From the NCBI GenBank assembly GCA_964016885.1, contig OZ024741.1, positions 80,104,001 to 80,168,000 of the forward strand: 64,000 nucleotides of DNA, read 5' to 3'. The stretch is from Eledone cirrhosa (taxonomy: Eukaryota). The translations under genes and the position numbers were made by a program. The notes beneath the pieces are model-generated. The model had not been told where the DNA came from. It ran no database searches and was given only the letters and a program-made list of their open reading frames with translations. This document shows positions 461 to 64,000 of the stretch, piece after piece (the stretch's first letter is position 1; the number at the start of each line of letters is the position of its first letter).

Positions 461-848
461 AATATTTCATAATGCTAATTTGCTATCGTTTTTATTGCAA
501 AATATTACTTTTTAATTTTTAATATCATGGTCTGCACTGAGCATTTCATAACATTCTCTAAGCATTTAATTATCGGCCTTATTCATAACAGAAGGTTATT
601 TATTTTGTATGCAATAGAAGTGAATATATAATATGACACGCCACGACCTTGAGGACTTATTCATAAATAAAATTTTACCAATATATAAGCCAATGAAAAT
701 CATAAGATATTTTTAAATACTTAGATTTCTAGATTCTCTAGATCCTCAGATTGCACTGTATGTATAATTATTATCAATGTGTTATGACTAACTTAATGAG
801 ATGATGTTTAACTAATTTTATTTATTTATTATTCATAATAATAATAAT

Positions 849-923
849 AATTGTTTCTACTTTTGGCACAAGGCCAGCAATTATTCCAGCGAATTACTGG
901 TACTTTATTGTATCGAACCCGTA
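849..923 (-). mobile_element. 3' fragment of tRNA-derived SINE with (ATT)n tail
   Basis: Matches the 3' part of the fuller copies at 46589-47235. Confidence 0.85.
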
Positions 924-1175
924 AATAATAATGCTTTCTTTATTAACCACAAGGGTTTACATAAAGTAGACATTAAGGACAATACATGAAGGTACAAATG
1001 GACATTTCTGCGTGTAAAAAAACAAAAACAGAGGATGTAACAAAAAAAATAACAATGAAAAATTCCCCAATAGGGGGGAGACTTCCGAGGGAAATTTATG
1101 GAGAAAGCCCATTAAAAGGCCACAGTGACCCTGACCACTAGGGCAAGTGCCCGCTCCCAGTTTTCCACCTGTAAT

Positions 1176-4100
1176 TTACAGACACATTCACTCGGGCCAT
1201 ACTTGCTTCTCTCACCCATCTTTCAACAAAATGCTGGGAAGAGAGCACTTCCCTCTCTACCCTGATTTTCCTTTTCAAATGGAATTTGAAAAAGTTAATC
1301 AGGGCATCACCGAAGAGGTAAGTGCTCGTCTTCAGCCCTTTCAAACGTGTCCACCATACTATCTCTTTCGCCATGGCCACCAGACAGATAAAAACTGCCT
1401 GCCCTTCCCGGCTAAAGGAAGAGGGCGGGGCAATCCTCACGATGGACTCAGCTGATAGCTGGAACCGTCCTACACGTGACAGCAGGTGTTCGACATAAAC
1501 CCACAAGTCAGCAATGCTCGGACACTGGACAAGTGCGTGCAGGACGGTTTCGTCGCCCTGCGCTTATCTCGGACAGGCCCGGCTGACGACACCTCCATGC
1601 CTGTAGAGTGTATCCCGAACTGGCAAAGCTCCTCGGTAGCACTGCCAGGTCAGGCCAGGGATTTCTGGAAGTTGTCCATAGGCCCCGGCCCGAAAGTTCT
1701 TCCGAAGAGATTGGCTAGTTGATTTTCGTCGACGCCTAGAGTTTCTCCAAGTACGTCGTCGCTCTTCCCCTCCACTAATCCTCTATAGAACGCCAAGGTG
1801 GAGTTTCCATCGATCACATTGCCCGATTGGTCGAGGGCTGTGAGCGCCTGAAGACATTCCAGTGTCCAAGCGCTCCCTCTCGGTCTTCGCTTGACCCAGG
1901 ACTGCAACTCCGTCAAGGAGACGAGCTGGGGAAAGACGCGTCTAGTAAACGGCGACCACACCTGATCACCGTCGAGGAAGAGGTGGAGATGTCGTCGCAT
2001 GGAGGTCCAGACCGAACCAGTACCCTAGCAATTTAACCGGTCCGTCCGTCCAGTGCCCGACGACGCTGTTGAACGGCATGGACCTGCCTCTCCAGGTGCC
2101 GAGCTGCAGGCCCACTGACTTTTCCTGGTTGATCATTGCTCCTGTCACCGCTTCGTATTCTCTTAGTGTAGTACCGATCGCCTCGATGTGTTTGGCGTTC
2201 GACACCACTACGGTGACATCGTCCACATATGCTGACACGGATCTTCCGCATCCTACTTCGCGCGGGATCCCCCTCAACGTCTCCAGTTTGTGCAGTAATG
2301 GCTCGAGAGTCAATACGTACAAGAGGGACGAGAGGGGACATCCTTGGCGGACCGAGCGCATGATGTTGAACCGTTCCGAAAGGTGACCGTTCACTCTCAA
2401 CACAAAGCAGATGTCGCTGTGCATGGCAGCGATCCAGCCTCTGAAGAAGGGCCCAAAGCCAGCCGCCCTCAGGACTGCCTCTAGGTAACGATGGTCGACC
2501 CTATCGAAAGCTTTCGACTGATCTAAATTGATCAAGGACCCACTCGTGCCAGGTTCCCTAGCTACACTCTCTACGATGTATCGCATGAGGTGGAGGTTGT
2601 CGTGGATGGATCTGTCGGGAATGGCGCACGTCTGCGCCTCTCCCACCAGACCACCAACGACAAGCGCCAACCTCTTTGCTAGCACCTTGGCCAAAATCTT
2701 GAACTCTATGTTTAACAGAGTTATGGGCCTGAAATTATCTATGTTATCCCCCTTGTTCGGATCCTTTCTCAGCAGCGCCACCGCTCCTCGGCTCACAGAG
2801 CTGGGTATTCTCCCGTTCTGTTGCCAGTTGCAGTAGACGTCCGCGAAGAGGCCTCCGAACAAGTCTGGCATCTGTACGTAAAGTTCATAGGGCAGACCAT
2901 CCAAACCAGGCGATTTACCCCTTGTGCAGCCAGTCATTGCCTCCCGTACTTCAGCGGCTGTTATTGGCTTTTCGCAACACTCCGCCTCAGTGGCCGAGAG
3001 CCGCGGCAGTCCGTCGAGGTAGACACTAAAGTCCATCCCTCGATCCGGGCCGCCGCTGCCCCCGAACAGCTGGGTGAAGTGTCGCTGGAAATCTTCATAC
3101 ATTTGCCCGGGATCGAGTAGCATGGGCCCGTTGTGGTCCACCAAAGACCGGATCGTGGCTTTGTTGCCACGACGCACCTCCGCCACTCGGGCCCATTGAA
3201 CGGGTTTCGTCCCCTTGTGTCTGAGAGCACGCACCCTAGCTCTGACAACGCAGCCTTCGTGCTTTGCATTGAAGAATTGGTCAAGGGCCAATTTCGCCGC
3301 AAGTATGTCGGTCGCGATGCCTTTGCTAAGCGCCTTGTCTAATTTTCTAACTAGTTCTCCCTCTGCTCTATTTTTCTCTATTGCTAAAGCCTTACTAAAC
3401 CTAATGGACTATATTCTAATCGCTCTTTTCAGAGCAAAGCACCACTTGTTGTTGACGATGGCCCCCGTCAACGCCCGCTTAACTAGTTCGCTAATCCGGT
3501 CTATGTAGGCCTTGCGCGCTGGTAAGGACGCGTTTAGCTTCCAGTAGCCGGGTCCTCGTCTATGAAGCCTATCTAAGTCAAGCACACAGATCACTAATTT
3601 GGCGTCCGTGTAGCTGACTATCTTGAATTGTGGACAGCCTATGCTAGACTTATCCATTTCCCTACAAAATACTCTATCTAGATATGATCCGGATGACCCT
3701 ATGCGATTTGTCCAAGTCCACATTGACACATTCGGGAAATCCAATCTGTACCTGTCAGACAGTTCAAAAGGCCTGAGCAGATTGGTGAGGCTCTTGCACC
3801 CTCCACCCCTATCCGCTAATCCCACACAGTCCCAGCGTGCATCTAAGATCTCGTTCCAGTAGCCCACTAACACTAAAGAGCGGGACGTTCCAAGAAAGGT
3901 CTTCAGACGCCGGAAGAATCAGGCCGCCCTGCTCCTGTCGGGGCATAGACGGCCATTAGCCTGAAAGCTTGCCCGTCTTCGCTGGTCACGTCCAGCACCA
4001 CCGACTTATCCTCTGGGTCCAGGAAGATGGCCCGTATGGCGAGATCCAAACCTCTCCAAAAAAGCACAGCAACTCCTCCCCCGATCCAGGACGGCTGGGA

Positions 4101-4279
4101 GATGCGTACACATCGTAGCCGCCGAAGATCGGTGCGAAGGCCCGTGCTTCGGATATTCTGGTCTCGCTGATGGCCACTACATCTATGTTTAGTGACCTGA
4201 GATCGTTGAGCAGGTGGCCCTGCTTCCACGGCGACCCCAAGACACGCGCATTTATGCTGCCTATTCTGAGTGAGGTCAT
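1176..4279 (-). pseudogene. E1 ORF2 (APE endonuclease plus reverse transcriptase), frameshifted, with an ~0.3-kb deletion near 2000
   Basis: ORF pieces 3986-4279, 3409-3873, 1966-3291 (KSPGLDG, NFRPITLLN, KAFDRV, QGCPLS, YVDD), 1650-2000, 1138-1506. Confidence 0.93.
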
Positions 4280-4314
4280 GTTTAAAATAGAGTGGAAAAG
4301 ATGGGAAAGACCAC

Positions 4315-6143
4315 TTACCTTACTTCTCGTAGAGGATGGATGGTTTCTCCATCCTTTTCACTGCTTGTGGCCTCCACCAGAAGGATGTTTTAGTGTCATG
4401 TATGTTTTCTGTGTGATGCGAGTGATTTGTATGTGTGGAGGTGATGCTGGTGTTGTGTTGGATGTATTGTAATAATTGGTTGTTGTTCAAATTTAATGCT
4501 GTGTAATGTGTATCGTTTTGGTTGTTTTGTTTTGTTTGGGTTTGTTGTGGGTTTGTTTCTGTTTCGCTTCTTGGTGACTTTTGTGGTGTAGGTGATGGTG
4601 GTGTTGGGGTTAATGATGGTGATGGTGTTGGTGTTTGGGGTGATGGGGTTGGTGATGCTGGTGTGGATGGTGTCATATCTGTCCTAACTTTTTTGTTTGA
4701 TAATTTATTTGTTTCCCTCTGTATTTTGTTTTTGGAGGGGGAGGGACGAGAATTTGTTCCTTTTTGGTTTCTTTTTTTCTTTTTTCCTGATACCGTTTCC
4801 CACTCCTCGTCGTCACAATCTGTCTCCAGTTGTGACAGGCCGGGGAGTGGAAAATCCTCCACAGGCGTTGATTTTGGTTGTGGCGTGGTGGATGGTGTAG
4901 GCGCTGGTGCTAGTTCAGGCGCGTTGGGTGGTGGTGGTGTTGGTTGTGCTACTGTTGCTGGGGTTGTTTCTGTTACAGTTGCTTCTGTTGTTGCTGCTAC
5001 AGTTGTTGCTGCCATCTCTGCTGCTGGTGGTGTTGATGGTTGTGTCACTGGGGTGGGTAAGAGAGGTGGCCTCAACCTTTTAGCCTGAGGGCAGAAATCC
5101 CTTAGGTGGGTTCCTTCACCACAAATGACACACCTAGGCCTTCTGCCCTCGACGATTACGGTGAGGTGGATGCCATCAGTGAGGTCTATTACCACTGGGA
5201 TCTCCTCAATGCTTTTTTTAGTCCGCTTGGATCAGGAGCTCCATCCCAGATCCGGACCAGTTTTCCTGCTTTTCTTTCGCTATTTCGATTATCTTGGTGT
5301 TGGCTTCAATGCCGGCGAGGACGGCAGCTATTAGCCAGGGAATTTCGATGGCCGGTGGAACGTGAGTCACCCTGATCTTCAGGAGTCTCTGGCTACAATA
5401 GCTTGGGACGAGTGTGAAGTCGTCACTTCTTAATGGGGCCATGGAGTGTTCTCTGGCCTCCTGTGGTGTTTCAAAGAACACGTCCACGGTTCCATATTTC
5501 TGCCTACGTCTGATGTGGGATTTTTTTGCCCACACATGTCCCAAAGCTTTTTGGATTTGGGACTCGGATGCCCGTTCCATTCGGCGCGATTTTATGTTAA
5601 TCGTCCGATAAGATACGGTGCATAGGCGCCGATGCTCCATTTTATTAGGTGGGGGAGGGGGAGGCTGACCCTGTACCCATCTTTCTTTACCATTTTTTTG
5701 GCTTCTTCTAATTCCTCCTGAGTTACCTGGAATGCTTCGCACTGTTTTGCTACTCTGGTAAAACTCAGGGTGGTTTTCTTAATTTCATTGTTACTGTTGT
5801 TGTCATCGTTATTTTTCTTATTGTTAATTTTAGTTTCAGTTGTGGTGGTGGTGGCGTCAGTGGTGTTCGGTGTGGACGAGTTCATTTTGGTTGAATTCAT
5901 TTCGATATCACGAGTTAATTTATTTTTTTCTTTTGTTTCTGTTGTCGCTGTGGTGGTGTTGGTGGTGGCGGCTTTAACACCTGCAGTCATTGGTAATGGC
6001 GGGAAATGAATGTCTGCCTGAGACAAATTTAAAATATTGCTACTGCTTATATTTTTAGTGTTGGCAAACGTAGTAATATTTACAATGGTGGTGTCGGTGT
6101 GAGGTGTTAGTTTGTGAGGAAGGTGTGACTCTGAGTCGTCCAT
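4315..6143 (-). pseudogene. E1 ORF1, frameshifted
   Basis: Pieces 5592-6143, 5218-5742, 4320-5195 with CVICGEGTHLRDFC zinc knuckle and Pro/Thr-rich tail. Confidence 0.88.
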
Positions 6144-6358
6144 GTGTTTTCAAAGAAAATTTTTTGTTTGATAATTATAAAAGTTTAAATTTTTGGCTCA
6201 AGGCCCCAATCATTTTGGGTGTCCTTTTCAGATAACAATGCATGTGCACTTATATACAGTTAACAATAAAAAAATTTCCATAAATTGCAATTGTAAACAA
6301 CTGAAAATAACAAACCTTTGCGGAGCTCACGATGATACGATTTACTACGTAGGTCGCC

Positions 6359-6388
<30 letters not shown>
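6359..6388. repeat. (AAT)n spacer between E1 and E2
   Basis: Direct reading. Confidence 0.97.
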
Positions 6389-6390
<2 letters not shown>

Positions 6391-6648
6391 TTTCATTTAT
6401 TGGCCACAAGGGCCGACATATAGGGGACAATACAAAAGACTGGGACAGTGGGGTTTTACAGAAAAATCGAGTAAACAATATGAATAACAAAGTAACAATA
6501 AAGTAACAAGAAAATTACAACAAGAAAAAATTCCCCAATAGGAGGGATGACCACCTAGGGTTCGCTCAGGTACCCCACCAGTCCTGAACGACCCGACGCT
6601 TCGAGAGCACTCTGGAAGGGCACCCCTCTCCTCCTCAAATTTACCTAC

Positions 6649-9497
6649 CTACAGCCGCATGACCAGAGTAGGCCCACTCAAACGGGCCATTCTCGCCACA
6701 TTCACCCACCTTTCAGCAAATGTACTGGGGGGCAGCACTTCTCTCTCCACCCTCACCTTCCTTTCCAAGTGAAACTTGAAAAAGTTGATGAGGAATTGGC
6801 CGAAGAGAAAAGTGTCTGTCTTCAGTCCTTTCAACCTCGTCCACCATACAACCTCTTTCGCTACTGCCACCAGACAAGAAAATTGCCTGCCCTTCCTGGC
6901 CAAAAGAAGGCGGCGGGTCGATCTTCACTATGGACTCGGCCGATAGCCGGATCCGTTCTACACGCTACAACAGCTGTTCAACATAACTCCACAAGTCAGT
7001 ATTGCACGGACACTGGACTAGTGCGTGCAGAACGGTTTCGTCGCTCTGCGCGCATCTCGGGCAGGTCCGTCTGACAGCACTTCAGTGCCTGTAGAGTTTA
7101 TCTCGAACCGGCAGTGCCCCCCGGTAGCACTGCCAAGCGAGGGGTTTTGGGAAATTATTCATCGTCCCCGGCTCGAAAGTCCTCCGGTACAGACTGGTGA
7201 GTTCGACTTCGTTGACTCCCAGAGCCTCTCCGAGTGCGTCGTCGCACTTGCCCACCACTAATCCTCTATAGAACTCGAGAGTGGAAGTTCCACTGACCGC
7301 ATTGCCCGCCTGGTAGAGGGCAGTGAGTGCCTGGCAACATTCCAGATGCCAGTGACCCAGTCTCGGTCTCTTCTTGACCCAGGACTGCAGCTCAGTCAAA
7401 GAAACGAGCTGCGGAAAGGCCCGTCTGACAAACGGCGACCATACCTGTTCACCGTTTAGGCAGAATATCTGGAGATGCCGCAGTCTCAGCGCGTGCCTGC
7501 GCATCATTAGCCACGGCATGCCCAGCCCTCCACGTAGAGGGTGCTGGCAGCAGATGGACCGCCTCACCAGCGGAACCTGACCCCTCCACAAGAATTTGAA
7601 GAGGAGCCGCTCCAAGATGGCAAGGCGCGAACGGGGGCAAGGGACGACGGTCAGACGGTAGCAGATGACGGACGCGATGTACGCGTTCGCCACCTCCGCC
7701 CGACTTTTCAGTGATAGCTTCATCCCAGCCCATTTCTGGGTGAGACTGGCTACCCTGCCCGTCACCTCGTCCCAATTATTATCCACCTGGAGGTCTGGCC
7801 CGAACCAAACCCCTAGCAACTTTACCGGTCAGTCCGTCCAGCGCCTAACGACGCTGTTGGACGGCATGGACTTGCCTCTCCAGGTGCCGAGTTGCAAGCC
7901 CACCGACTTTTCCGGGTTAGGTTTTGCTCCCGTCAACCTTTCATATTCCTCCAATAAATTGCCGACCACCTCGATTTCTGAGGTGTCCGACACCATCACG
8001 GTGATGTCGTCCGCATAAGCCGACACAGCCTTTCCGCGTCCCGGTTCGAGCGGGATGCTCTGCAACAGCTCCAGCTTCCGCAGTAAAGGCTCGAGAATCA
8101 ATGCGTACAGAAGGGAGGAGAGAGGGCACCTTTGACGGACCGATCGGGAGACCTGAATCTCGGCTGAAGTCATTGGCCTTTCGCAGCGCCCAGCGTCAGC
8201 CGTCGAGAGTTGCGGCAAGCCATCGAGGTAGGGACTGAAGTCTGCCACCATCTCTGACCCGCCACTTCCCCCGAACAACCGAGCAAAATGTTGGCGAAAG
8301 GCCTCACACATCCTCTCGGAATCGCTCAGCTCGTGCCCGTCTCGGTCCGTCAAAGACCGAATCGTGGTTTTATTACCACACTGCGCCTCTGCCACATGGG
8401 CCCATCGAACAGCTTTGGTTCCCTCGTTTATCAGAGCGCGTGCCTTAGCTCTGACAATGCAACCTTCGTGTTTCGCATTGAAGAAATGGTCTAATGCCAT
8501 TCTCGCCGCTAGCACGTCAGTTGCAATGCCACTACCAATAGCTTCGTCTAACTTATCTACCAACTCCCCCTCCTTTCTATTTTTCTCTAACGCTACTTCT
8601 TTGCTAAACTCTATTGACATTACTCTAATCTCTCTTTTGAGAGCCCCCCCCCCCCCACCATCTATTGTTGACGACTCCCCCTGTCAACTTTTTCTTAACT
8701 AAATTGTTGACCTGGTCCCTGTAAGCCTTACGTGCCGGAAATGACATGTTTAGCTTCCAGTAACCAGGTCCTAACCTACGCGTCTTATCTAGGTCGACCA
8801 TACAGATCACAAACTTGTGATCTGAATAGGCGACCGTTTCAAAACGTGGACAGCTTACACTATTTCTGTCTATTTTCCTAATGAATATCCTGTCTATATA
8901 CGATCTAGATGACCCTATGCGGTTAGCCCAGGTCCACACTGGCGCATTAGGGAAATCTAGTCGGTACCTGTCAGACAGTTGGAACTGGCTGATCAGTTTC
9001 TTGAGGCTTTTGCACCCCCCGCTCCTATCGGATACTCCCACACAGTCCCAGCGTGTGTCTAAGATGCCGTTCCAGTCCCCCGCTAACAGTAAAGGGCGAG
9101 ACGTACCCAGAAAGGCTTCCAGGCGTCTAAAGAAGTCCGGCCGTCCTGCCCCAGTAGGAGCATAGACGGCCACCAGTCTAAAGGCACCACCTTCGTTATT
9201 GTTCACGTCCAGGACCACCAACTTCTCGTCCGGGTCCCGGAAAATCGACCTTACCTCGAGATCCAGGCCTTTCCTAAACAGCACTGCCACTCGGCCTCCC
9301 ATTCCCGGCCGGCTAACAGATGCAAAGATCTGATAGTCGTCGAAAATGGGGGCTAGTGCGCGGGTGTCTGAAATCCTGGTCTCGCTGACGGCAATTACAT
9401 CCATTTCTATAGACCTGAGGTCGTTGAACAGGTGACCCTGCTTCCAGGACGATCCCAGGCCTCGAACATTTAAACATCCTATTCTTAATACGGCCAT
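6649..9497 (-). pseudogene. E2 ORF2 (APE plus RT) with internal deletion of the RT N-terminal half near 8150
   Basis: 8625-9497 APE (GCLNVRGL, SETR, VYAP, GDWN, SYIDRIF, YSDH); 7829-8620 joins the linker directly to RQRCPLS..YADD; also 7082-7819 and 6649-6903. Confidence 0.92.
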
Positions 9498-9532
9498 GTT
9501 GGCAGGTTAAACAGAGAGAGAGGAAGGTTTAC

Positions 9533-11501
9533 TTACCTTCCGGGCTCTTGTGAAGGTCGGGTTGTTCGACCTCCATAGTTGGTGGGGTTTCTTTGGGGAA
9601 CCCCTTTAAAAGTCTTGAAGTGGGTTTTACGTTCGGGGTTCCCACGTCTCGAGGAAAGCTGTCTCGTATTTCTTTGAATATATCGAGCGACATTCACACC
9701 AGAACCAAATCTTCCGGCACGCGAAATGTGCTCGATTTAAAAATGTCACCCTCTTTTAGTATATTTTCACTTCGTGCTACGAGGGCCATCAGTTCCTTGT
9801 TGGCCCTCCTGACGAGCACGAAGTTTTGTATGTTTTGTTGGTGTGATTTTATTTGTTTGCGTGTCTGTGGTGGTGATGGTTTTGGTGGTGTTGTTTTGGT
9901 TGTATCTGTGTTTGTTGTGAGTGCGGTGTCTGTGGTTTCAGATGTTTGTGTATATATTTGTTCTTGCGTCTGTTTAGGTTGTTTGCGTTTGGGGGATTCT
10001 GGTGATGGTGATGGTGGTGTTATTGAAGAGATGTTTGCGTGGGTGGTGTCTGCGTTTTTTATTGTGGGTGATTTTGTGCTTTGTTGAGTTTTTTTTTTCT
10101 TTTTGTGTTTCCTTTTTTGTATTTTGGAGGATTTTGGTTTTCCCTCATCTTCACTACTGGTAGATGAGGGGTTTGTGTCTGAAGTGTGTCTGTATGTATG
10201 TTTATGGTTTTATTGGTGTGTGTATTTTTGGGGGGAAGGGGAATTTGACAGCTTTCCTCGTTCCCCACCTGGGTGGTCAATGTTGGTGGTGGTCTTTCTA
10301 TTGGTGTTGTTGTTGGTGGTTTTGCCGGTGCTGATGTTGGTTGTGGTCCTTGCCCCGGCGTCGGCAGCAGTGGAGCCTTTCGACCCCTTGCATCTTTCAG
10401 CAGTTGAGGGCAGAAGGCTCGCAAATGGGTTTTCCCCACAAACAAAACACTGCGGCCTTTTGCCTTCGGTCATAATGTGAATGACCGTCCCATTCTGAAG
10501 GCGGATGTGGTCCGAGATTGTCTTCACATTGTCGGGCCTGATCTGGAGAAGGATCTCCAGGTCAACCCCAGACCAGTCCTCTCTGGCTGTTCTGGTCACT
10601 TCTATAGGGACGGTATCCGTCCCCTCCACAATCACACATCCCAGAAGCCACCACATGTCAAGTCCTGGTGGGATTCTGGGAATGCGGAGAAAGACCGTTC
10701 TTTTTCCCATGTGGGAGGGGTACATTATGACCTTGCTGGTTTTGCAAGGAGTCATAGCGTGTTTCATAGCGAGGGCTTCTAACTTGAACAACACCGAAAT
10801 GGTGCCGTACTGTCTGCCCCTCTCTATGTATTCGGTGTCTTCTCTGATGCACCTCAGCGCGACTTCGACATCTTCTTGTGGGATTAAAGCTACCCTTTTG
10901 GTTTGTACTGAGATGCATCTATAATGCACCGTTCTGCGCTCCAATGCCTCAATAGCTTCTACCGGGAGAGTTAAGTTGGACCAGGTTTGCTCTTGCTTGA
11001 TGAGCTTCCATGCCTGGGCCAACTTTTCATCTTTGTTTGAGAGGTCCATGTTGAAGCATGGCCTCTTTTTTGCTGCTGCCGCAGCGAAAGTGTTCTTCTT
11101 GTTTTCGTTGGGGGTGTTGTGGTCGTTTTCGCTGTTCTTGTTGGTGTTGTTGTTAGCACTGTCGCTGTTATCATTGTTATCTTTGTTGCCACCGTTGTTC
11201 TCGGTGCAGTTGGTATTGTTGCTGTTGGTGTTGTCGCTATTTGTTTTCATGTTAGTGGTGTTGATATTGTTGTTGGATTTGTTATTTTTTTTTTTTTGTT
11301 ATTTGTATTTTCGTTGTCGCTGTTACTGACATTTTTTTCAAAATTAGAGTTCTCATTGGTATCATTGGTGTCTTTGTTTACATTATTTGTGGTGGTGTTT
11401 GTGTTATCAATTTGTGTTAATTTCGCTGTAGCGCTCCTCTCAACTTCCACGTCGTTGTCGCACGACAGCAGACATATCGCTGGGGGTCGTGGCTCAGCCA
11501 T
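9533..11501 (-). pseudogene. E2 ORF1, frameshifted
   Basis: 10210-11250 has an Asn-rich N-terminus, RRM-like core and CFVCGE; knuckle continues THLRAFC in 10059-10445. Confidence 0.85.
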
Positions 11502-11702
11502 GTTTTTTTTTCTCCGTAAATGTTTTAACATGTAAAAAAAATTCAAATATTATACTTTCCCCTTCACAGGGTAAAGTCTAAGGGCTTATATCCCTTACAC
11601 AACAAGAAATATTTAACAACAAATAATTTTAACAGGCAAATAAAGCGACTTACTAGGAGCGAGCAAAATACGTCCGCTTAGACCAATAATAATAATAATA
11701 AT

Positions 11703-14700
11703 AGACAAGGGAGAGGCTAGCAAAAGATATAAATAGACTGACTTAGTGACCCGGTCAAATGTCAACGACTATGGCACTGCTGGCTCTCCCTTTCCCCACC
11801 AACAATAGAAAAAGCCACAGCATCACCACCGACATAGCCAACAACAATAACAGGCAACTTCAACAAAAAGTATATTATATTATTAATAATAATTTCATTC
11901 TTAAGCCACGCAATGCTCACATTAAGGAACCACTCATGATAATAACAATTTAAAAAAACAACAAAAAAGAAAACCCCGTGACCAAGAAATACCGGGATGG
12001 CAGCCGGCGGGGAATAGCCGTGTCTCTAGGGGAGGACGACCACTCTAGTCTTGGTTGACACTCGTCCTAGAAGTGGTAACACGAAATGATTACCCCTTGG
12101 CGGTTAAGGATAAAACGCGACAAAGTAAAGTAAATGTCAAATGATAAAATCTCATACCGGATCGGCCGTCGCCCGGGTCAAAAAGGGCCGCGTCCCTCAG
12201 AGAGGAACCAGACTGAGGTCGAAAAATCAGCTAATGGTTCAAACATTCCCATCACTTCGGAGCTGGAGACCTCCCATAACCGGAATACTCCTACTGTTGG
12301 CCCTCCATGCTCACCACCAAGAAATCCAAAGAAAATGAGAGAAAAATGGTCAAGGGAAGACAATAAAGAAGTTCTTGAGGCTTTCTACACTGCCATGTAC
12401 TACCCATCAAATAGATCGAATACAGAACAGACATATATCAACTGGAAAAAGAAACATCCTGAAAACAGAGGCTATATTGACAGTAACAAACTAGCCAATA
12501 TACGAAGAAATATTGTTAAAAAAAGTTACTAACTGATATAGAAATTGATCAGATCAAGCTATTAGCACAAAGTCAGCGAAGGGAAAATGAAACATGTGTT
12601 AGTGAAAACGAGGTAAATTGTAACACTTCGAATCCCAGGGTTGGGGCGAAATCACTGACAACAGAACAAATTAAAGAATGGATCGAAAAAGTGGAGGGAG
12701 TGCATGCTCATGATGAAACTCAAAATGAAAACAATGAGATCGTAAATGATAAAGAAATGAATGAGAATGAACTTGCCAACTTGAAGGATGAAATTATGAT
12801 CGAATGGATGAAAATGAAAGAATCTGACATGGGGGAACGAGACACTCTCCCTAAGATCCAGAATTCCACACAAGACTAACATAATTCTCAAAAACATTAT
12901 CATCACAAACAAACTAAACATTACTGATTTAAATCTGCATCGGCTAAAGTCACCACTCACTTATGTGGAATGAAAATGACAAAACAAAGGAATTCCCACA
13001 AGAAATCTACTTGGCAAGAGAACATCAATCGCCAAATAAACCTTCTCCGATCTGACATAGAAATTTTAACAAACTACAAAGTAGGTGAACATGTTAAACA
13101 AACTAAACTTAGAAAATTGAAAAGGAAATACAGTATAAAATCAACAAGTGACATAGACATGCTGATAGAAATAATCAAGTAAAAAGTGTCGGCCAAAGCT
13201 GCTCGTATAAGGCGCTTTGAAAAACGATCTAGATTCTATCAGAACAATAATATTTTCAAAAACAACCAAAGAAACTTCTACAGAAAAATTGACAGGTCAA
13301 CAATAACTGCTAAATCAATACCACCCAAGGAGGAAGTGCAAGAATTCTGGGAAAAGATCTGGGCCGAAGAAAATGTTCATAATATACATGCCACATGGAT
13401 AGACAGACAAATGAAAGATACAGCTCACCTTGAGGAACAAATATGGGAAAATATAACAGTTGAACAGTTGGGTTTGGCTCTTAGAAAGACCAGCAAATGG
13501 AAATCCCCAGGAAAAGACAAAATACAAAATTTTTTTATAAATTCCTTCACAGAGTCTCATGAGCTGTTAGCCCAACTTTACAATGAAATAGTTAAGGAGC
13601 CAGAAAAGATACCATCATGGCTAGTTAACGGCATTACATTCCTGCTTCCGAAGAATGATGAGACAAACAATCCCAAAAATTACAGACCGATAACTTGCTT
13701 GACCACAATGTATAACATTTTAACATCAGTCCTAACTGAATACACATATGACCAACAAATGATCTATTTCCCAATGAGCAGAAAGGGTGTAAACGAAGCT
13801 CATATGGCTGTAAGGATCAGCTTCTGGTTAACAAAATGATACTGGAAGATTGTCATAATAGACACAAAAATCTATCGATTGCTTGGATAGATTATAAAAA
13901 AGCATTCGATAGTTTGCCACACAGTTGGATTGAAAAATGTTTAGAGATTTTCAAAATATCTCCCGTTGTCAGGAGGTTCCTGTCATTCAGTATGAAGACA
14001 TGGAAAACGACACGAATAGTGAAAAAAAATCACTGGAAGCTGGAGAAGTTAATATTAATTGTGGAATTTTTCAGGGTGACTCTTTATCACGGCTTTTATT
14101 CTGCATCGCACTTATACCATTAAGTAAAATGCTCAATGAAACAAAACATGGATATAAAGTCTATGACAAAACCATTAATCATTTGTTCTACATGGATGAC
14201 CTGAAACTATTTGCAAAAAATGATAGCAAGGGCTATTATCCACTGTGGAGCAGTTCAGTGATGACATTAAAATGGAGTTTGGAGTAGATATATGCGCCAA
14301 AGCAACGTTCACCAGAGGAAAGCTGCTGAAAAGTTCAGACATTAATCTTGATTGGGGGAATATGATAAGAGAACTTGATCAAGAGGAAACTTACAAATAT
14401 CTAGGTGTTTGTGAAGGAGACGGAATCAAGCACTCGACAATGAGGGAAAGGATAAGGAAGGAATATTACCGTAGAGTAAGAGCAATCTTAAGAACGGAAT
14501 TGAATGCAAGGAATAGGATCGATGCCATAAACACGCTTGCCATACCAGTAGTAACCTACAGTTACAATGTCATCAACTGGTCAAGCACAGAGATCTGTAG
14601 GCTCGATACAAAAATTAGAAAATTCTTAACCATGCACAGAATGCATCACCCTAAGGCAGATACAGATAGAATATATCTCCCTAGGAAAGAAGGAGGGCGT

Positions 14701-15873
14701 GGGTTAATCCAGTTATATATTGCGATGAAAACTGCAACAATTGGATTATCTACATATCTAAGGGAATCACATGATTGGATGATCAAACTCGATTTGAAAC
14801 ACGAAAGCATCAAAAGATCATACTCCATTACAAAAGATGCACAAAGATACAGTAATGGACTACAAATTTCAGAAGTCCCATTTACTGCTGAAATGGAAAA
14901 CACAGAAAAAGCAAAGCAGGTAAAAGTAACTGCAAAGAAAGAACTGCTACAGAAACTGACTAAGAAATGGCAAGAAAAGCCTCTGTATAGAAAATACCCA
15001 GAAGGAGCTAACAATCCTGATGTTGACAAAACTTTAACCCATCAGTGGTTGGCATCCTCTGGACTGAAATCGGAGACTGAAGTACTGATTATATCAGCAC
15101 AAGATCAGTGTCTGCCAACAAAAAATTACCAAGCCAACATAATAAAAAATGGATGCAACCCATTATGCCGTGTATGTAAAAAAATAACCAGAGACCATTG
15201 ATCATATAATTTCAATGTGCAGTCCTATAGCTCCAACCGAATACCTAAAGAGGCATGACAGAGCTGCACAATACATACATTGGATAATGTGTAAGCATTT
15301 TGACCTGCCCCATCAAAAGAATTGGTGGGAGCATCAACCACCTCCCATACTTGAAAAAGATCACATCTCAATCTTGTGGAACTTTAGCATCCAAACAGAC
15401 CGAAAAATAGATGCAAATAGACCTGATATAATACTGAAGGACTTTAAAAAGAGGGTATGCCTGCTAATTGATATGTCCGTTCCAATAGACAAGAATGTAT
15501 CTATAAAAACATTTGAAAGTATAAGGAGCAAGTATAAGGACCTGGAGATAGAAATTGGAAAAATGTGGAAATTGAGAACTAAAACAATACCAGTGGTTGT
15601 AGGCGCTCTAGGAATGATAACTAGGAATGATTACTTATCGCAAATCCCAGGAAACCCGCGTATAGGAGAAATACAAAAGATAGTACTAATGGGAACTGCC
15701 CATATACTAAGGAAGATTCTGTCAATATAAGTACATCACAAGTCTAAACACCGAAAGATGCATGTGTGTGTATGTATGTTCTTTCTTGAACGTGGCGGAC
15801 CTTGTTGTCTCTTGCGGTCACTGGTTGTGACTTGGTGATAACTCGTATGAACATAAAGCAAAATAAATGCAAC

Positions 15874-15875
<2 letters not shown>
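11703..15875 (+). mobile_element. R4/Dong-clade RLE non-LTR retrotransposon D1, apparently full-length, flanked by (AAT)n
   Basis: (AAT)n at 11685-11702 and 15876-15915; single broken ORF with Myb-like N-terminus, RT, CCHC and RLE. Confidence 0.93.
12134..15730 (+). pseudogene. D1 RT-RLE polyprotein, several stops and frameshifts
   Basis: REKWSREDNKEV (N-terminus), [54 protein letters not shown]. Confidence 0.93.
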
Positions 15876-15916
<41 letters not shown>

Positions 15917-16159
15917 TTTTCTTTATTAACCACAAGGGTTTACATAAAGTAGACATTAAGGACAGTACAGGACAATACAGGACGGTACAAATGGGCATTT
16001 CTGCGTGTAAAAAAAACAGCGGATGAAATAAAATAACAAAGAAAAATTCCCCAATAGGGGGGAGACTTCCAAGGGATATTTGTGGAGAAAGCCCATTAAA
16101 AGACCCCAGTGGCCCTGACCACCAGGGCAAGTGCCCTCTCCCAGTTTTCCACCTTTAAT

Positions 16160-19100
16160 TTACAGACACATACTCAGAGAAGGCCCATTCATTCGGGCCA
16201 TACTTGCTTCTCTCACCCATCTTTCAACAAAATGCTGGGAAGAGAGCACTTCCCTCTCTACCCTGATTTTCCTTTTCAAATGAAATTTGAAAAAGTTAAT
16301 CAGGGCATCACCGAAGAGGTAAGTGCTCGTCTTCAGCCCTTTCAAACGTGTCCACCATACTATCTCTTTCGCCATGGCCACCAGACAGATAAAAACTGCC
16401 TGCCCTTCCCGGCTAAAGGAAGGGGGCGGGGCAATCCTCACGATGGACTCAGCTGATAGCTGGATCCGTCCTACACGTGACAGCAGGTGTTCGACATAAA
16501 CCCACAAGTCAGCAGTGCTCGGACACTGGACGAGTGCGTGCAGGACGGTTTCGTCGCCACGCGCGCATCTCGGACATGCCCGGCTGACGGCACCTCCAGG
16601 CCTGTAGAGTTTATCCCGAACTGGCAAGGCTCCTCGGTAGCACTGCCAGGCTAGGGATTTCTGGAAGTTGTCCATAGGCCCCGGCCAGAAAGTCCTTCCG
16701 AAGAGATTGGCTAGTTGATTTTCGTCGACGCCTAGAGTTTCTCCAAGTACGTCGTCACTCTTCCCCTCCACTAATCCCCTATAGAACGCCAGGGATAGCT
16801 TTCAGGGATAGCTTCCTCTCGGCCCATTTCTGGGTGAGAGAATCCACCCTGCTCGTCACCTCGTCCCAGTTTTTGTCAGTCTGGAGGTCTGGACCGAACC
16901 AGACCCCTAGCAATTTAACCGGTCCGTCCGTCCAGCGCCCGACGACGCTGTTGGACGGCATGGACCTGCCTCTCCAGGTGCCGAGCTGCAGGCCCACTGA
17001 CTTTTCCTGGTTGATCATTGCTCCTGTCACCGCTTCGTATTCTCTTAGTGTAGTGCCGATCGCCTCGATGTGTTTGGCGTTCGACACCACTACGGTGACA
17101 TCGTCGGCATATGCTGACACGGATCTTCCGCATCCTAGTTCGCGCGGGACCCCCCTCAACGTCTCCAGTTTGTGCAGTAATGGCTCGAGAGTCAATACGT
17201 ACAATAGGGACGAGAGGGGACATCCTTGGCGGACCGAGCGCATGATGTTGAACGGTTCCGAAAGGTGACCGTTCACTCTCACTACAGAGCAGATGTCGCT
17301 GTGCATGGCAGCGATCCAGCCTCTGAAGACGGGCCCAAAGCCAGCCGCCCTCAGGACTGCCGCTAGGTAACGATGGTCGACCCTATCGAAGGCTTTCGAT
17401 TGATCTAAATTGATCAAAGACCCACCCTTGCCAGGTTCCCTAGCTACCCTCTCTACAATGTATCGCATGAGCTGGAGGTTGTCGTGGATGGATCTGTCGG
17501 GAATGGCGCATGTCTGTGCCTCTCCCACCAGCCCACCAACGACAAGCGCCAACCTCTTTGCTAGCACCTTGGCCAAAATCTTGAACTCTGTGTTTAGCAG
17601 AGTTATGGGCCTAAAATTATCTATGTTATCCCCCTTGTTAGGATCCTTTCTCAGCAGCGCCATGGCTCCTCGGCTCACAGAGCTGGGAATTCTCCCGTTC
17701 TGTTGCCAGTTGCAGTAGACGTCCGCCAAGAGGCCTGCGAACAAGTTTGGCATTTGTACTTAAAGTTCATAGGGCAGACCATCCAGACCAGGCGATTTAC
17801 CCCTTGTGCAACTAGTCATTGCATCCCGTACTTCAGCGGTTGTTATCGGCTTTTCGCAACACTCCGCCTCAGTGGCCGAAAGCCGCGGCAGTCCGTCGAG
17901 GTAGACACTAAAGTCCATCCCTCGATCCGACCCGCCACTGCCCCCGAACAGTTGAGCGAAGTGTCGCTGAAAAGCTTCACACATTTGCCCGGGATCGAGT
18001 AGCATGCGCCCGTCGTGGTCCACCAAAGACCGGATCGTGGCTTTATTACCACGACGCGCCTCCGCCACTCGGGCCCATTGAACGGCTTTCGTCCCCTCGT
18101 GTCTGAGAGCACGCACCCTAGCTCTGACAACGCAGCCTTCGTGCTTTGCATTGAAGAATTGGTCAAGGGCCAATTTCGCCGCAAGCACGTCGGTCGCGAT
18201 GCCTTTGCTAAGCGCCTCATCTAATTTTCTAACTAGTTCTCCCTCTGCTCTATTTTTCTCTATTGCTAAAGTCTTACTAAACCTAATGGACTCTATTCTA
18301 ATTGCTCTTTTCAGAGCAAACCACCACTTGTTGTTGACGATGGCCCCCGTCAGCGCCCGCTTAACTAGTTCGCTAATCCGGTCTCTGTAGGCCTTCCGCG
18401 CTGGTAAGGACGCGTTTAGCTTCCAGTAGCCGGGTCCTCGCCTATGAAGCCTATCTAAGTCAAGCACACAGATCACGAATTTGTGGTCCGTGTAGCTGAC
18501 TATCTTGAATTGTGGACAGCCTATGCTAGACTTATCTATTTCCCTACAAAATACTCTATCTAGATATGATCTGGATGACCCTATGCGATTTGTCCAAGTC
18601 CACATTGGCACATTCGGGAAATCCATTCGGTACCTGTCAGACAGTTCAAAACGTCTGAGCAGGTTGGTGAGACTCTTGCACCCTCCTTCCCTATCCACTA
18701 ATCCCACACAATCCCAGCGTGCATCTAAGATCCCGTTCCAGTCGTCCACTAACACTAAAGAGCGGGACGTTCCAAGAAAAGTCTCCAGACGCCGGAAGAA
18801 ATCAGGCCGCCCTGCTCCTGTCGGGGCATAGACGGCCACTAACCTGAAAGCTTGCCCGTCTCCGCTGGTCACGTCCAGCACCACCAACTTACCTTCTAGG
18901 TCCAGGAAGATGACCCGTATTGCAAGATCCAAACCTCTCCGAAAAAGCACAGCAACTCCTCCCCCCGATCCCGGACGGCTGGGAGATGCGTACACATCGT
19001 AGCCGCCGAAGATCGGTGCGAAAGCCTGTGCTTCGGAGATTCTGGTCTCGCTGATGGCCACTACATCTATGTTTAGTGACCTGAGGTCGTTGAGCAGGTG

Positions 19101-19163
19101 GCCCTGCTTCCATGACGACCCCAAGCCACGCGCATTTATGCTGCCTATTCTGAGTGAGGTCAT
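16160..19163 (-). pseudogene. E3 ORF2 (APE plus RT plus C-terminal CCHC); stop at 17760 and ~0.43-kb deletion near 16790
   Basis: ORFs 17760-19163, 16779-17753 (YADD), 16160-16771 (CPRC..ETVLHALVQC). Confidence 0.94.
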
Positions 19164-19197
19164 GTTGAAAAGGAGTGGAAAAGATGGGAAAGACCAC

Positions 19198-21214
19198 TTA
19201 CCTTACTTCTCGTAGGGGAAGGACGGTTTTTCCATCCTTTTCACTGCTTGTGGCCTCCTCAGGAAGGATGCCCTTATAAATCCTCCTGGAGAGTGCTTGT
19301 CGGAAGTCTCCGATGTCTTTGGGGAATTTTTGTTTTAGTGTCATGTACGTTTTCTGTGTGATGCGAGTGATTTGTATGTGTGGAGGTGGTGTGAATTTTG
19401 GGGTTGTTGTGTAGTCTTTTTCTGTGATGCTGGTGTTGTGTTGGATGTAGTGTAATAATTGCTTGTTGTTCAAATTTAATGTTGTGTAGTGTGTATCGTT
19501 TTGGTTGTTTTGTTTTGTTTGCGTTTGTTGTGGGTTTGTTTCTGTTTCGCATTTTGGTGACTTTTGTGGTGTAGGTGATGGTGGTGTTGGAGTTAATGAT
19601 GGTGATGGTGTTGGTGTTTGGGTTGATGGGGTTGGTGATGCTGGTGTGGATGGTGGCATATCTGTCCTAACTTTTTTGTTTCTTAGTTTATTTGTTTCCC
19701 TCTGTATTTTGTTTTTGGAGGGGGAAGGAAGAGAATTTTTTCTTTTTTGGTTTCTTTTTTTTTTCCGGATATCGTTTCCCACTCCTCGTCGTCACAATCT
19801 GTCTCCAGTTGTGATAGGCCGGGGAGTGGAAAATCATCCACAGCTGTTAGTTTTGGTTGTGGTGTGGTGGATGGTGTAGGCGCTGGTGCTAGTTCTGAAG
19901 CGTTGGGTGGTGGTGGTGGTGTTGGTTTTGCTGGTGGTGGTAGTGGTGTTGGTTTTGCTACTGTTGCTGGGGTTGTTGCTGTTATAGTTGCTTCTGTTGT
20001 TGCTGCTACAGTTGTTGCTGCCATCTCTGCTGCTGGTGGTGTTGATGGTTGTGTCACTGGGGTGGGTAGGAGAGGTGGCCTCAACCTTTTAGCCTGAGGG
20101 CAGAAAGCCCTTCGGTGGGTTCCTTCACCACAAACGACACACCTAGGTTTTCTGCCCTCGACAATTACCGTGAGGTGGCTGCCGTCAGTGAGGTCTATTA
20201 CCTCTGGGATCTCCTCAATGCTTTTTTGGTCCGCTTGGATTAGGAGCTCCATCCCAGATCCGGACCAGTTTTCCTGCTTTTCTTTTGCTATTGCTATTAT
20301 TTTCGTGTTGGCTTCGATGCCGGTGAGGACAGCCGCTATTAGCCAGGGAATTTCGATGGCCGGTGGAACGTGGGTCACCCTGATCTTTACGAGTCTCTGG
20401 CAACAATAGCTTGGGACGAGTGTGAAGTCGTCACTTTTTAATGGGGCCATGGAGTGTTCTCTGGCCTCCTCTGGTGTTTCAAAGAACACATCCACGGTTC
20501 CATACTTTTGCCCACGTCTGATGTGGGTTTTTCTTGCCCACACATGTCCCAAAGCTTTTTGGATTTGGGACTCGGATGCCCGTTCCACTCGGCGCGATTT
20601 TACATTTATTGTTCTATACGACACGGTGCATAGGCGCCGATGCTCCATTTTATTAGGTGGGGGGTGAGGCTGACCCTGTACCCATCTTTCTTTACCATTT
20701 GTTTTGCATTTTCTAAATCCTCTTGAGTTACCGTGAATGCTTCGAATTGTTTTGCCACTATGGCGAAACTGAGGGTCGGTTTTATAATGTCATTGTTGTT
20801 GTTGTTGCTATCGTTATTTGTGTTAATATTAATTTTAGTTTCAGTTGTGGTTGTGGTGACGTCAGTCGTCTTTGGTGCGGAAGAGTTCATTTTGCTTAAT
20901 TTCATTTCGACATCACGAGTTAATTTATTTTTTTCTTCTTTTGTTTCTGTTGTCGCGGTGGTGGTGGGGGTGGTGGTTGTCGCGGTGGTGGTGGTGGTGG
21001 TGGTGGTGGTGGTGGTGGTGGAGGCTTTAACACCTGCAGTCATTGGTAATGGCGGGAAATGAATGTCTGCCCGAGACAAATTTAAAATATTGCTACTGCT
21101 TATATTTTTTTTTGTGTTGGCAAACGTAGTAACATTTACAATGGTGGTGTCGGTGTGAGGTGTTATTTTGTGCGGAAGGCTTTCAGCTGCTTCGTGCAGA
21201 GGGGAATTAGCCAT
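19198..21214 (-). pseudogene. E3 ORF1, frameshifted
   Basis: Pieces 20606-21376 (likely start MANSPLHE at 21214), 19683-20648 (CVVCGEGTHRRAFC), 19198-19782. Confidence 0.88.
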
Positions 21215-21421
21215 TGTTTTCGAAGAAATTTTTGGATAATAATAAAAGTTAAAATTTTGGGCACAAGGCCCCAATCTTTTTGGGTGTCCTTTTCGGAAAA
21301 CAATGTATGTGTGCTTATAAACAGTTAACAATAAAATTTTCCATAAATGGCAATTTTTAACAAACGGAAATAACAAACCTTTGCGGAGCTCACGATGATA
21401 CGATTTACTACGTAGGTCGCC

Positions 21422-21488
<67 letters not shown>

Positions 21489-21495
21489 GTAATAA
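21422..21495. repeat. (AAT)n microsatellite
   Basis: Direct reading. Confidence 0.97.
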
Positions 21496-46362: not shown

Positions 46363-46397
<35 letters not shown>

Positions 46398-46553: not shown

Positions 46554-46588
46554 TATATATATATATATATATTTACAAATATATATAT

Positions 46589-47235
46589 AATTGTTTCTAC
46601 TTTTTGGCACAAGGCCAGCAATTACCCAGTGCATTACTGGTACTTTATTTTATCGACCCCGTAAGGATGAAAGGCAAAGTTAACCTCGGCAGGATTTGAA
46701 CTCAGAATGGCAAGGGCCGTAACTCTATGCGTCAAAGCATGGCGTCCGACCCTCTACCGATACTGCCAATCCACCGCCATCATATATATATATATAATTG
46801 TTTCTACTTTTGGCACAAGGCCAGCAATTACCCAATGCATTACTGGTACTTTATTCTATCGACCCCGGAAGGATAACAATTTTAGGAAAGGGGAAAATCG
46901 ATTAAAGCGATACCAGTGCGTTACTGGTACTTTATTTTATCGACCCCGTAAGGATAAAAGGCAAAACTAACCTCGGCGGGATTTGATCTCAGCACGTAAA
47001 GGTCCGTAACTCTATGTCAAAAAGCATGCTGTGCATGCTCTAAATAATTGTTTCTACTTTTGACACAAGGCCAGCAATTATCCCAGTGTATTACTGGTAC
47101 TTTATTTTATCGACCCCATAAGGATGACAGGCAAAGTTAAAATCGGTGGGATTTGAACTCAGACCATAAAGGGCCGTAACTCTCTGCTGCAAAGCATGGT
47201 GTCCGACCCTCTACCGATACTGCCAATCCACCGCC
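46589..47235 (-). mobile_element. Three tandem tRNA-derived SINE copies (46589-46778, 46796-47040, 47046-47235)
   Basis: A-box tggcagtatcgg, B-box gagttcaaatcc, Nin-like core cctttcatcctt..ggggtcgataaaat..gtaccag, tail tggccttgtgccaaaagtagaaacaatt. Confidence 0.92.
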
Positions 47236-52278: not shown

Positions 52279-52853
52279 GGTCGCATCACCGCCACCACTG
52301 CCTCGGTATCGACATCACCACCACCACTGTCTCAGTATCGCCAACGCCGCCAGTCTCTGCTGGCTGCCACTTCCACATTATAGAATTCTTACTACTAACA
52401 AAGAGAAAGGCATCAAAATATATAGATAGACTCAAAAGAAAAAAGAAAAAACAAACAACAAAAGCAGCACAGCAACAACAGCAAAAAACGAGAAAAACAA
52501 ACAGAGAAAAACAAAAACAAAAAAAGAAACCCCAAAAACGTAAAGAAAATAAGAATGAAGAGAGAAGCAGGCGGACGGACAGAGAAGAGGGGGGGAAAAG
52601 TAAAACTTAAAAAACAAAAACTAAGTCAGACATTCGAATACTACATTACAATGAAACTTATGCTTATTCATTTTTGGGGCCCTTTCTGCCCGTGTGTTTG
52701 TTTGTTTATGTGTGTCCGTATACAGCGTGGTGATAATGCCACACAAGGGCCAAGTGGGATGGCGGATCCACAGATGGCTATGTAAACATACATTCGCCAA
52801 TCCTCGATAAGAGTGTTTAAATATCGAACATAAACAGTTCGAATAACGGTGAA

Positions 52854-56246: not shown

Positions 56247-56357
56247 GGCTGCAGGTAGTGGCTTGATATTCAATCCAACGGACTTTCCAGTTAACCAACA
56301 TCAATGACTGAGATTCAAGGAATAACAATAACAATAATAATAATAATAATAATAATA

Positions 56358-57974: not shown

Positions 57975-58018
<44 letters not shown>

Positions 58019-58279
58019 TTTCTTTATTAACCACAAGGGTTTACATAAAGTAGACATTAAGGACAGTGCAGGACGATGCAGGGCGGTACAAATGGGCATT
58101 TCTGCGTGTAAAAAAACAAAAACAGAGGATGTAACAAAAAATAACAATGAAAATAACAATGAAAAATTCCCCAATAGGGGGGAGACTTCGGAGGGACATT
58201 TGTGGAGAAAGCCCAGTAAAAAGCCACAATGACCCTGACCACCAAGGCAAGTGCCCTCTCCCAGTTTTCCACCTTTAAT

Positions 58280-61200: not shown

Positions 61201-61699
61201 TGGTGAGGCTCTTGCACCCTCCACCCCTATCCGCTAATCCCACACAGTCCCAGCGTGCATCTAAGATCCCGTTCCAGTCGCCCACTAACACTAAAGAGCG
61301 GGACGTTCCAAGAAAGGTCTCCAGACGCCGGAAGAAATCAGGCCGCCCTGCTCCTGTCGGGGCATAGACGGCCACTAGCCTGAAAGCTTGCCCGTCTCCG
61401 CTGGTCACGTCCAGCACCACCAGCTTACCCTCTGGGTCCAGGAAGATGGCCCGTATGGCGAGATCCAAACCTCTCCGAAAAAGCACAGCAACTCCTCCAC
61501 CCGATCCAGGACGGCTGGGAGATGTGTACACATCGTAGCCGCCGAAGATCGGTGCGAAGGCCCGTGCTTCGGAGATTCTGGTCTCGCTGATGGCCACTAC
61601 ATCTATGTTTAGTGACCTGAGGTCGTTGAGCAGGTGACCCTGCTCCCATGACGACCCCAAGCCACGCGCATTTATGCTGCCTATTCTGAGTGAGGTCAT
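58280..61699 (-). pseudogene. E4 ORF2, full-length (1139 codons) with one in-frame stop (TGG>TAG at 60857-60859)
   Basis: 60857-61699 (APE) and 58280-60724 (RT YADD, CPRC..H..C) are in the same frame; E3 has WW at the stop position. Confidence 0.95.
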
Positions 61700-61734
61700 G
61701 TTTAAAATAGAGTGGAAAAGATGGGAAAGACCAC

Positions 61735-63831: not shown

Positions 63832-64000
63832 GTTGTTTTTTTGTTTAAAATGAATATTGGGTACAAAACCCCAATAACTGGTTATTTAACCCCGAAGGGC
63901 CAAATAACGGACAGAAAGACCCCTCTCACGGGGAGGAGGGTGTTTTTGTCTACAAGTTGGTCTAAGTTTTAAACAATTTATAATTGTTAAAGCGTTCAAA

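Follow-up and report, generated by a model that had tools for sequence, protein, structure and literature searches.

What brought several long interspersed nuclear elements (LINEs) to lie one behind another between runs of the trinucleotide ATT is the question raised by the stretch of Eledone cirrhosa DNA analysed here. The stretch (the window) comprises 64,000 nt of contig OZ024741.1 in a genome of 3.0 Gb; coordinates are window positions unless a locus label (L and a number) is used. Three of the LINEs, E1, E2 and E3, were seen to be flanked by (ATT)n at both ends and in register, and the 3' ends of these three and of a fourth copy, E4, all read AATAAA-(T)GAAA-N-C|ATT without poly(A) (4/4), as stated in a preliminary description of this DNA. 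The 5' junction ATT|GG given there was present in E1, E2 and E3; it does not stand as a general rule, since the head of the E4 type begins ATT|GA. The description went on to propose a poly(A)-less LINE family with an apurinic/apyrimidinic-type endonuclease (APE) that inserts at ATT. Targeting of ATT by such a LINE of the L1/Tx1 group, with several subfamilies, was supported genome-wide.

Copies were surveyed by taking the first 60 LINE 3' ends in genome order. Full-length copies accounted for 38 of these, the second open reading frame (ORF2) was intact in 8, and both ORFs were intact in 4. Three unrelated 5' heads (A, B and C) were found on one ORF2 lineage and are interchangeable. Exact-motif counts over the genome gave at least 1,687 head-A and at least 281 head-C 5' ends, and at least 8,430 3' ends of the E3/E4 type and at least 2,860 of the E2 type. 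The copies showed variable 5' truncation and target-site duplications, and the family is young, recently multiplied and abundant.

Genome-wide, (ATT)3 stood directly upstream of 1,570 of the 1,687 head-A ends, and the five exceptions fetched from the first 100 head-A places were all ATT tracts with one interruption. All 38 full-length copies of the survey lay directly behind at least six ATT units, which is far beyond chance because the 3.0 Gb contain only 44,308 starts of V(ATT)6 tracts, and head-C copies were in ATT tracts in 30/30 cases. The share of ATT at the 5' flank of full-length copies was thus 93–100%; Kojima's criterion for a target preference in Tx1, given in the accessible part of PMC4494074, is more than 20% of flanks. 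The decisive group for the target is the truncated copies. After exclusion of L148 (unresolved) and L130 (internal deletion) from the 22 copies of the 60 that were not full length, 20 junctions were judged by eye, and 12 of them joined at ATT or carried a duplication with ATT at its start; one event accounts for both L128 and L129. Another examination of truncations within 1.5 kb showed ATT at the junction in five of six. A lack of ATT at the 5' flank of most copies elsewhere would, by its own terms, have refuted the preliminary description, and the head-A, head-C and truncated copies all gave the opposite result. At the other end, ATT followed 57/60 and 24/30 of the 3' ends, and poly(A) followed 0/60. 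Two points weigh against the target: the remaining 8 truncated copies had no ATT at the junction (2 joined CTT tracts, 1 joined AAT of the wrong strand and 5 joined none of these), and truncations of the E2 type were more mixed at the junction.

Duplications outside repeats started with ATT (16–17 bp in L136 and approximately 11–16 bp in L289), L128/L129 lies inside a minisatellite in which ATTATA was the only available site, and the duplications, of up to approximately 17 bp, begin with ATTAT. These features suggest that the target recognised in the DNA is a short ATTAT motif.

Two irregular kinds of junction were also observed. At L120, L123, L032, L009, L082 and L109, the 5' junctions held (CTT)n or compound CTT/GTT/ATT tracts, which may be ATT tracts that mutated and expanded, or a secondary target. 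The truncated copies L117 and L287 had (AAT)n upstream on the sense strand and (ATT)n or AAT/ATT downstream, an arrangement that suggests inversion during insertion.

A copy could also have ATT on both sides if (ATT)n were a slippage tail or the element's own 5' end, with the stacks being tandem duplications and no target being preferred. A CR1-like family of the same genome, labelled so by motifs that we take to be those of CR1, does end in an ATT tail, with another hairpin and without targeting: at approximately six independent junctions it mostly had neither 5' ATT nor a long duplication. Moreover, 11 of the 38 full-length LINEs stood directly behind the tail of another copy. That share, however, equals the share of such tails at long ATT tracts in general (9/30 among the first 30 V(ATT)6 starts in genome order), truncated copies with varied break points join at ATT, the flanks are diverse, the duplications begin with ATTAT, and a sister family behaves alike at another repeat (see below). 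The slippage explanation is already contradicted by these data and is extremely improbable.

The ORFs show what kind of LINE is targeted to ATT. ORF1 encodes approximately 697 amino acids (aa) and ORF2 1139 aa, the latter with the order endonuclease, reverse transcriptase (RT) and zinc finger (Pfam Exo_endo_phos, RVT_1 and zf-RVT) and with the catalytic APE motifs present. In a search against solved structures, ORF2 matched L1 best (E 5e-52, versus 1e-21 for R2), and the element is a member of the L1 group of non-long-terminal-repeat retrotransposons. Nothing in ORF1 rose above the Pfam cut-off; a CCHC knuckle (C-X2-C-X4-H-X4-C) was observed in E1, E3 and L124. Such a zinc knuckle in ORF1 is a feature of the Tx1 clade, and membership of that clade is likely from the sequence. 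Against it weighs a quick RT tree, from which 33 near-duplicates among 101 rows were dropped and to which the named Tx1L, Kibi, Koshi and Keno references did not belong; in this tree the lineage fell into a polytomy with Keno-like elements and a near copy of a 5S-flanked element.

The closest named homologs were a protein of Argonauta hians (68% identity) and a fragment from Octopus sinensis, and further homologs were approximately 40% identical. The endonuclease region by itself gave 4 matches, none a named Tx1. Eighty metagenome relatives showed 25–36% identity, the best including Keno-like elements flanked by U2 (29–32%), and none of the 80 loci carried an ATT-flanked or hairpin-ending element; a direct metagenome scan gave no relative, and ESM Atlas gave generic RT/endonuclease clusters only. 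Metagenome contigs L195–L197, L203 and L204 carry the Keno-like elements flanked by U2 small nuclear RNA (snRNA) and, besides these, one element with 5S rRNA behind it (Mutsu-like). An O. sinensis protein named tectonic-3-like (P0218) matches part of the LINE endonuclease with 64% identity over one stretch; a fragment may have been exonised there, or the gene model may be an artefact.

The sister family, also of Tx1 type, was found in a fixed-coordinate random sample of the genome (40 × 10 kb = 400 kb), and its end motif has 7,435 exact matches genome-wide. Its 3' flanks were ATCT/ATAT in the first 30 copies (30/30) and ATT in none, (TATC)n stood upstream of truncated and full-length copies alike, and intact copies exist. 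The two families are 66–69% identical in ORF2 and 61–63% in the endonuclease and form, with the Argonauta protein, one well-supported lineage. Some sister heads begin TATC|AGT, which resembles an initiator motif. The sister family (loci L387, L372 and L401–L450) includes tandem arrays with a period of approximately 5.9 kb.

Where specificity resides has two possible answers. The preliminary description credited the endonuclease alone, which goes too far: the duplications indicate only a short ATTAT motif, and sequence data cannot separate pairing of the RNA tail with the DNA from nicking. The site might therefore be chosen mainly by pairing of the AUU end of the RNA with the nicked primer, the endonuclease being a loose nicker of AT-rich DNA and the families differing through their tails. 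At the 3' junction, both targets, ATT and TATC, open with AT, the hairpin loops of the two endonucleases differ at 2–3 positions only, and short ATTAT sites are enough for short LINE copies and for a short interspersed nuclear element (SINE) described below. Against this stand the tip of that endonuclease loop, kept by both ATT enzymes (73% identical) and altered in both TATC enzymes (n = 2 and 2), and the exact start of duplications at ATTAT, in unique DNA as well; in addition, target choice in Tx1 is generally credited to the endonuclease in the accessible text of PMC4494074. Choice by pairing is rather unlikely on this evidence; it is compatible with most of the mechanism proposed below and differs from it only in the site-selecting step.

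The 3' ends of the LINE extend the comparison to a SINE. Every subfamily of the ATT LINE has, just upstream of AATAAA, a 4-bp stem (AACC/GGTT, GGCC/GGC(C/T) or AGCC/GGCC) around the loop CTTGT. The end of an abundant SINE, tRNA-like to judge from A and B boxes recognised by eye, has TGGC/GCC(A/T) around the same loop, and behind this come an A-rich run, GAAAC and ATT. By exact 15-mer, the genome contains at least 230,168 copies. At least three of the four stem pairs could form at 242 of 252 tail-type CTTGT sites and at 331 of 1,713 other CTTGT sites. Compensatory changes were found at three of the four pairs (CG/GC at pair 2, GC/AT at pair 3 and AT/TA/GC at pair 4), and the hairpin was the predicted fold in four relevant stretches. 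SINE and LINE share the target, the timing and the 3' tail structure (the last over a short part), with nearest-neighbour identities that overlap and reach more than 99% in both.

As to the target of the SINE, 17 of its first 30 copies had clear duplications of 11–20 bp starting with ATT (the background frequency of ATTAT is 0.28% per base). In the 400-kb sample, ATTA(T/A) followed 29 of 32 SINE tails, and an automated search gave a duplication in 20 of 31 SINEs, an upper bound. The sister family has mostly CCTGT or TTTAT in its tail loop, with CTTGT in 1/30. The loop and the target of the SINE are both those of the ATT family and not those of the TATC sister; no other argument for a partnership is as strong, and mobilisation of the SINE by the ATT-targeting LINE is likely from these sequence comparisons. 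Two other partners were considered and rejected, each on a small sample: CR1, which has another tail hairpin and mostly no long duplication, and RTE, whose presumed copies end in (ATG)n.

Several observations weigh against the partnership. Sites for the covariation count were picked by their CTTGT loop, and related copies enter it many times over; the hairpin is short, and its stability was no better than that of shuffled sequences (z of −0.6, −1.8, +0.6 and −0.5); the outer pair is mismatched in about half of the SINE tails; the similarity to the LINE is restricted to the last 25–40 bases; and the SINE lies mostly at short ATTAT sites in unique DNA, the full-length LINEs in long tracts. The SINE could accordingly have been moved by another LINE, an older Tx1 subfamily or a member of another clade, with the likeness of the hairpins due to ancestry or chance and the ATT LINE targeting its repeat all the same. 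The limited similarity fits this, as does the SINE stem TGGC/GCCA, seen on no LINE end examined, and the DNA examined amounts to stretches of approximately 1.1 Mb plus search loci out of 3.0 Gb. Nevertheless, a SINE-type tail was found on a LINE 3' end neither among 110 such tails in the examined loci (7 lacked a SINE body, being either short truncations or the head-A copy described next) nor in the 400-kb sample, and the SINE agrees with the ATT family, and not with the TATC sister, CR1 or RTE, in its loop and ending, in target motif, in the length of its duplications and in age. Another driver is improbable, with perhaps a quarter of the weight on its side.

A second CTTGT hairpin (GGGC/GCCC) was observed in the 5' untranslated region (UTR) of E3 (21259–21271) and of other head-A copies, approximately 150 bases inside the head, in a context like that of a SINE tail and with ATT. 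A truncated SINE may have inserted there and become fixed, or the hairpin may serve as another site for protein binding.

The best explanation overall, which we regard as probable, is that an ATT-repeat APE LINE nicks at AT(A)AT, is primed through its tail and mobilises a SINE in trans by way of the hairpin. The endonuclease would use a short AT(A)AT motif and nick its A-rich strand at the left edge of ATTAT; a second nick would follow 11–20 bp from the first. The transcript, cut inside the downstream repeat past AAUAAA, would end in the CUUGU-loop hairpin and a few AUU units, and pairing of this end with the nicked (AAT)n primer would fix the register and dispense with poly(A). By analogy with L2 elements (accessible part of PMC4176376), the ORF2 protein would recognise the loop of the hairpin, and a tRNA-like SINE that agrees with the LINE in loop, ending and target would be mobilised in trans. 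Transcription might start, more tentatively, within the last upstream ATT, at its A, in the manner of an initiator; if so, the exact ATT|G junction at the 5' end would be accounted for. No RNA data set was listed as containing the element, and contigs of two runs, compared with its 5' region, were uninformative on starts and expression. On a somewhat wider view, which is favoured less firmly than the mechanism itself, this lineage would have powered a large expansion of octopod SINEs: through recognition of the CUUGU loop by its ORF2 protein, at least 230,000 copies would have entered ATTAT sites and seeded ATT tracts, to be filled by the LINE itself and, from the opposite strand, by Dong; in the sister, the tail loop and the target (TATC) would have changed together.

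The stacks themselves can be understood from the tracts. Of the 30 sampled tracts, 9 had the tail of a Tx1 element upstream, 7 that of CR1 (the CR1-like family thus supplying about a quarter), 4 that of a SINE and approximately 5 the end of a Dong-like element, and by our own reading about 28 of the 30 touched a retroelement end. Since the share of full-length copies behind another Tx1 tail equals that of Tx1 tails among tracts, stacking follows tract availability, and a preference of the LINE for its own tails was not supported. Downstream of the 60 Tx1 tails, a Dong-like tail in inverted orientation was counted 20 times and a Tx1 head 13 times. Long ATT tracts are largely junctions created and reused by these retroelements: LINE, SINE and CR1 tails would provide most of them, and Dong-like elements would enter from the opposite strand. 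The stack at 837–21495 does not consist of Tx1 elements only: it includes a 4.2-kb inverted Dong-like LINE (11703–15876) and a SINE stub (852–923), both overlooked in the preliminary description. Expansion of one pre-existing microsatellite by this LINE alone, as first described, is not supported. Dong elements use a restriction-like endonuclease (RLE), and an APE LINE and an RLE LINE here share one repeat from opposite strands.

Known systems were compared by description, from the accessible parts of the papers cited. Tx1 families in microsatellites include Kibi in (TC)n, Koshi in (TTC)n and crocodilian families in (TTCC)n/(TTTC)n (PMC4494074, PMC3812793). The Eledone LINE is likewise an APE-type L1-group element with the repeat on both sides; it differs from these families in its ATT target (the short ATTAT motif) and the TATC target of its sister. 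The pyrimidine repeats of the Kibi/Koshi lineage are not the targets here, although 2 of the 20 truncated copies abut CTT. Unlike all of these Tx1 families, it has an octopod host, thousands of young copies and three swappable 5' heads. The Dong/R4 clade uses TAA repeats, with Dong, DongAg and DongBg in a snail, and Dong is described as APE-type in PMC3812793. The Eledone LINE resembles Dong in using the same trinucleotide repeat, and Dong-like elements share its tracts here, 20 of 60 LINE 3' tracts leading into a Dong-like tail. Dong carries AAT on the sense strand, whereas the present LINE, with its APE-type endonuclease, comes in from the opposite strand.

A Tx1 family has also been inferred to move a SINE, namely Tx1-Mar and SINEU of crocodilians, from shared target preference and age (PMC4494074). 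That argument used target, age and snRNA-derived heads, whereas here a tRNA-like SINE of at least 230,000 copies shares a hairpin with compensatory changes. The 3' stem-loop with a variable stem and a conserved loop is like that of ZfL2-1/ZfL2-2, in which the stem is recognised generally and the loop specifically (PMC4176376), and of one monocot L1 lineage (PMC3747384), both of them stringent LINE/SINE tail systems. Recognition of the loop has been shown experimentally in L2 only, and in this animal L1/Tx1-group LINE we infer it from sequence. SINEs make up approximately 40% of octopus transposable-element content (PMC8967140), and their share in one octopus genome is 11.6% (PMC13282606); L1-Tx1, Dong-R4 and large SINE fractions are reported in octopus repeat papers (PMC8967140, PMC9115989, PMC13282606); the accessible parts of these three name no partner LINE or target site for octopus SINEs. 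For mollusc SINEs, the partners named are CR1, L2 and Nimb (PMC11481361, PMC4758252, PMC4824008). No ATT- or TATC-targeting Tx1 and no octopus SINE–Tx1 pair was found in the literature that was covered, in which TATC was not searched by name and which did not include Repbase, Dfam, the 2004 survey, or the Tx1 target list (Fig. 3) and supplements of PMC4494074, where ATT or TATC could appear. As far as these sources go, microsatellite-targeting Tx1 and Tx1-driven SINEs are already known, and the ATT and TATC targets and the hairpin-sharing SINE partner have no counterpart among them.

A named SINE driver, if correct, would account for the landing sites and for the clustering of ATT tracts in mixed arrays. 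The mechanism by which APE-type elements target microsatellites is described as poorly understood (PMC3812793, accessible part). The two related families, both with natural intact copies and distinct in target and tail loop, open that question to direct test, and, if the reading is true, nature has supplied in them a pair by which both the RNA recognition and the target choice of an L1-group protein could be mapped.

The features of the window are collected in Table 1.

Table 1. Retroelements and ATT/AAT tracts in the window, in order of position
Feature	Position	Strand	Remarks
(AAT)5, the ATT tail of the SINE stub; minus-strand right end of the stack	837..851		
tRNA-like SINE stub, 5'-truncated	852..923	-	3' hairpin stem TGGC/GCCA, loop CTTGT at 864-876
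E1, ATT-targeting L1/Tx1-type LINE, head A	933..6358	-	Broken: ~300-bp ORF2 deletion and stops; 3' hairpin 945-957
(AAT)10 spacer, E2 3' end to E1 5' end	6359..6388		
E2, divergent subfamily, head C	6389..11684	-	~600-bp RT deletion; 3' hairpin GGCC/GGCC at 6402-6414
(AAT)6 common to 5' ends of E2 and Dong-like element	11685..11702		
R4/Dong-like LINE, broken, inverted relative to E1-E3	11703..15876	+	RT and restriction-like endonuclease motifs; (AAT)n on own sense strand
(AAT)13 common to Dong-like tail and E3 tail, tail to tail	15877..15915		
E3, head A, ~420-bp ORF2 deletion	15916..21421	-	3' hairpin AACC/GGTT at 15928-15940
(AAT)22 and degenerate units, upstream of E3	21422..21495		
Hairpin-bearing SINE, cluster of further copies	46558..47235	-	A and B boxes judged by eye
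Second mixed Tx1/Dong array including E4, truncated copies and two Dong-like families	~51.4 kb (51396) to >71 kb in window coordinates		Also L156
E4, same ORF2 family, head B	58017..64000	-	One in-frame ORF2 stop; 5' end 46 bases past the window, behind (ATT)6

Internal deletions of ORF2, approximately 300–600 bp in length, were present in E1, E2 and E3, and E4 has the single in-frame ORF2 stop that had been reported earlier. E2 is 73–79% identical to head-A copies in the nucleotide sequence of ORF2, and the 3' ATT tract of E1 has only 3 units. The second array contains an intact Dong-like ORF of 1141 aa (52821–56246), for which R2 was the closest solved structure, and the Dong-like element at 11703–15876 is 96% identical to 56358–57799. 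In the Dong-like elements at 11703–15876 and 52821–57974, RT, CCHC and PD-(D/E)xK motifs were judged by eye and AAT flanks were present; the elements at 11703–15876 and 52821–56246 are probably R4/Dong-like, a class assigned from these motifs with Dong and R4 sequences outside the comparison. At L079 and L089, a short SINE-tail insertion was observed in the Dong-like 5' UTR, and the copy in the window (11878–11895) has the empty ATTATT site.

A CR1-like fragment on the plus strand (45432–46394) ends in (ATT)10 and has a different 3' hairpin. An Rfam search of the window gave no match. A 235-bp inverted repeat pair (96%), its members separated by approximately 600 bp and possibly forming a miniature inverted-repeat transposable element, and a 1-kb tandem duplication (93%) lie at 21703–22766 and 24264–26211.

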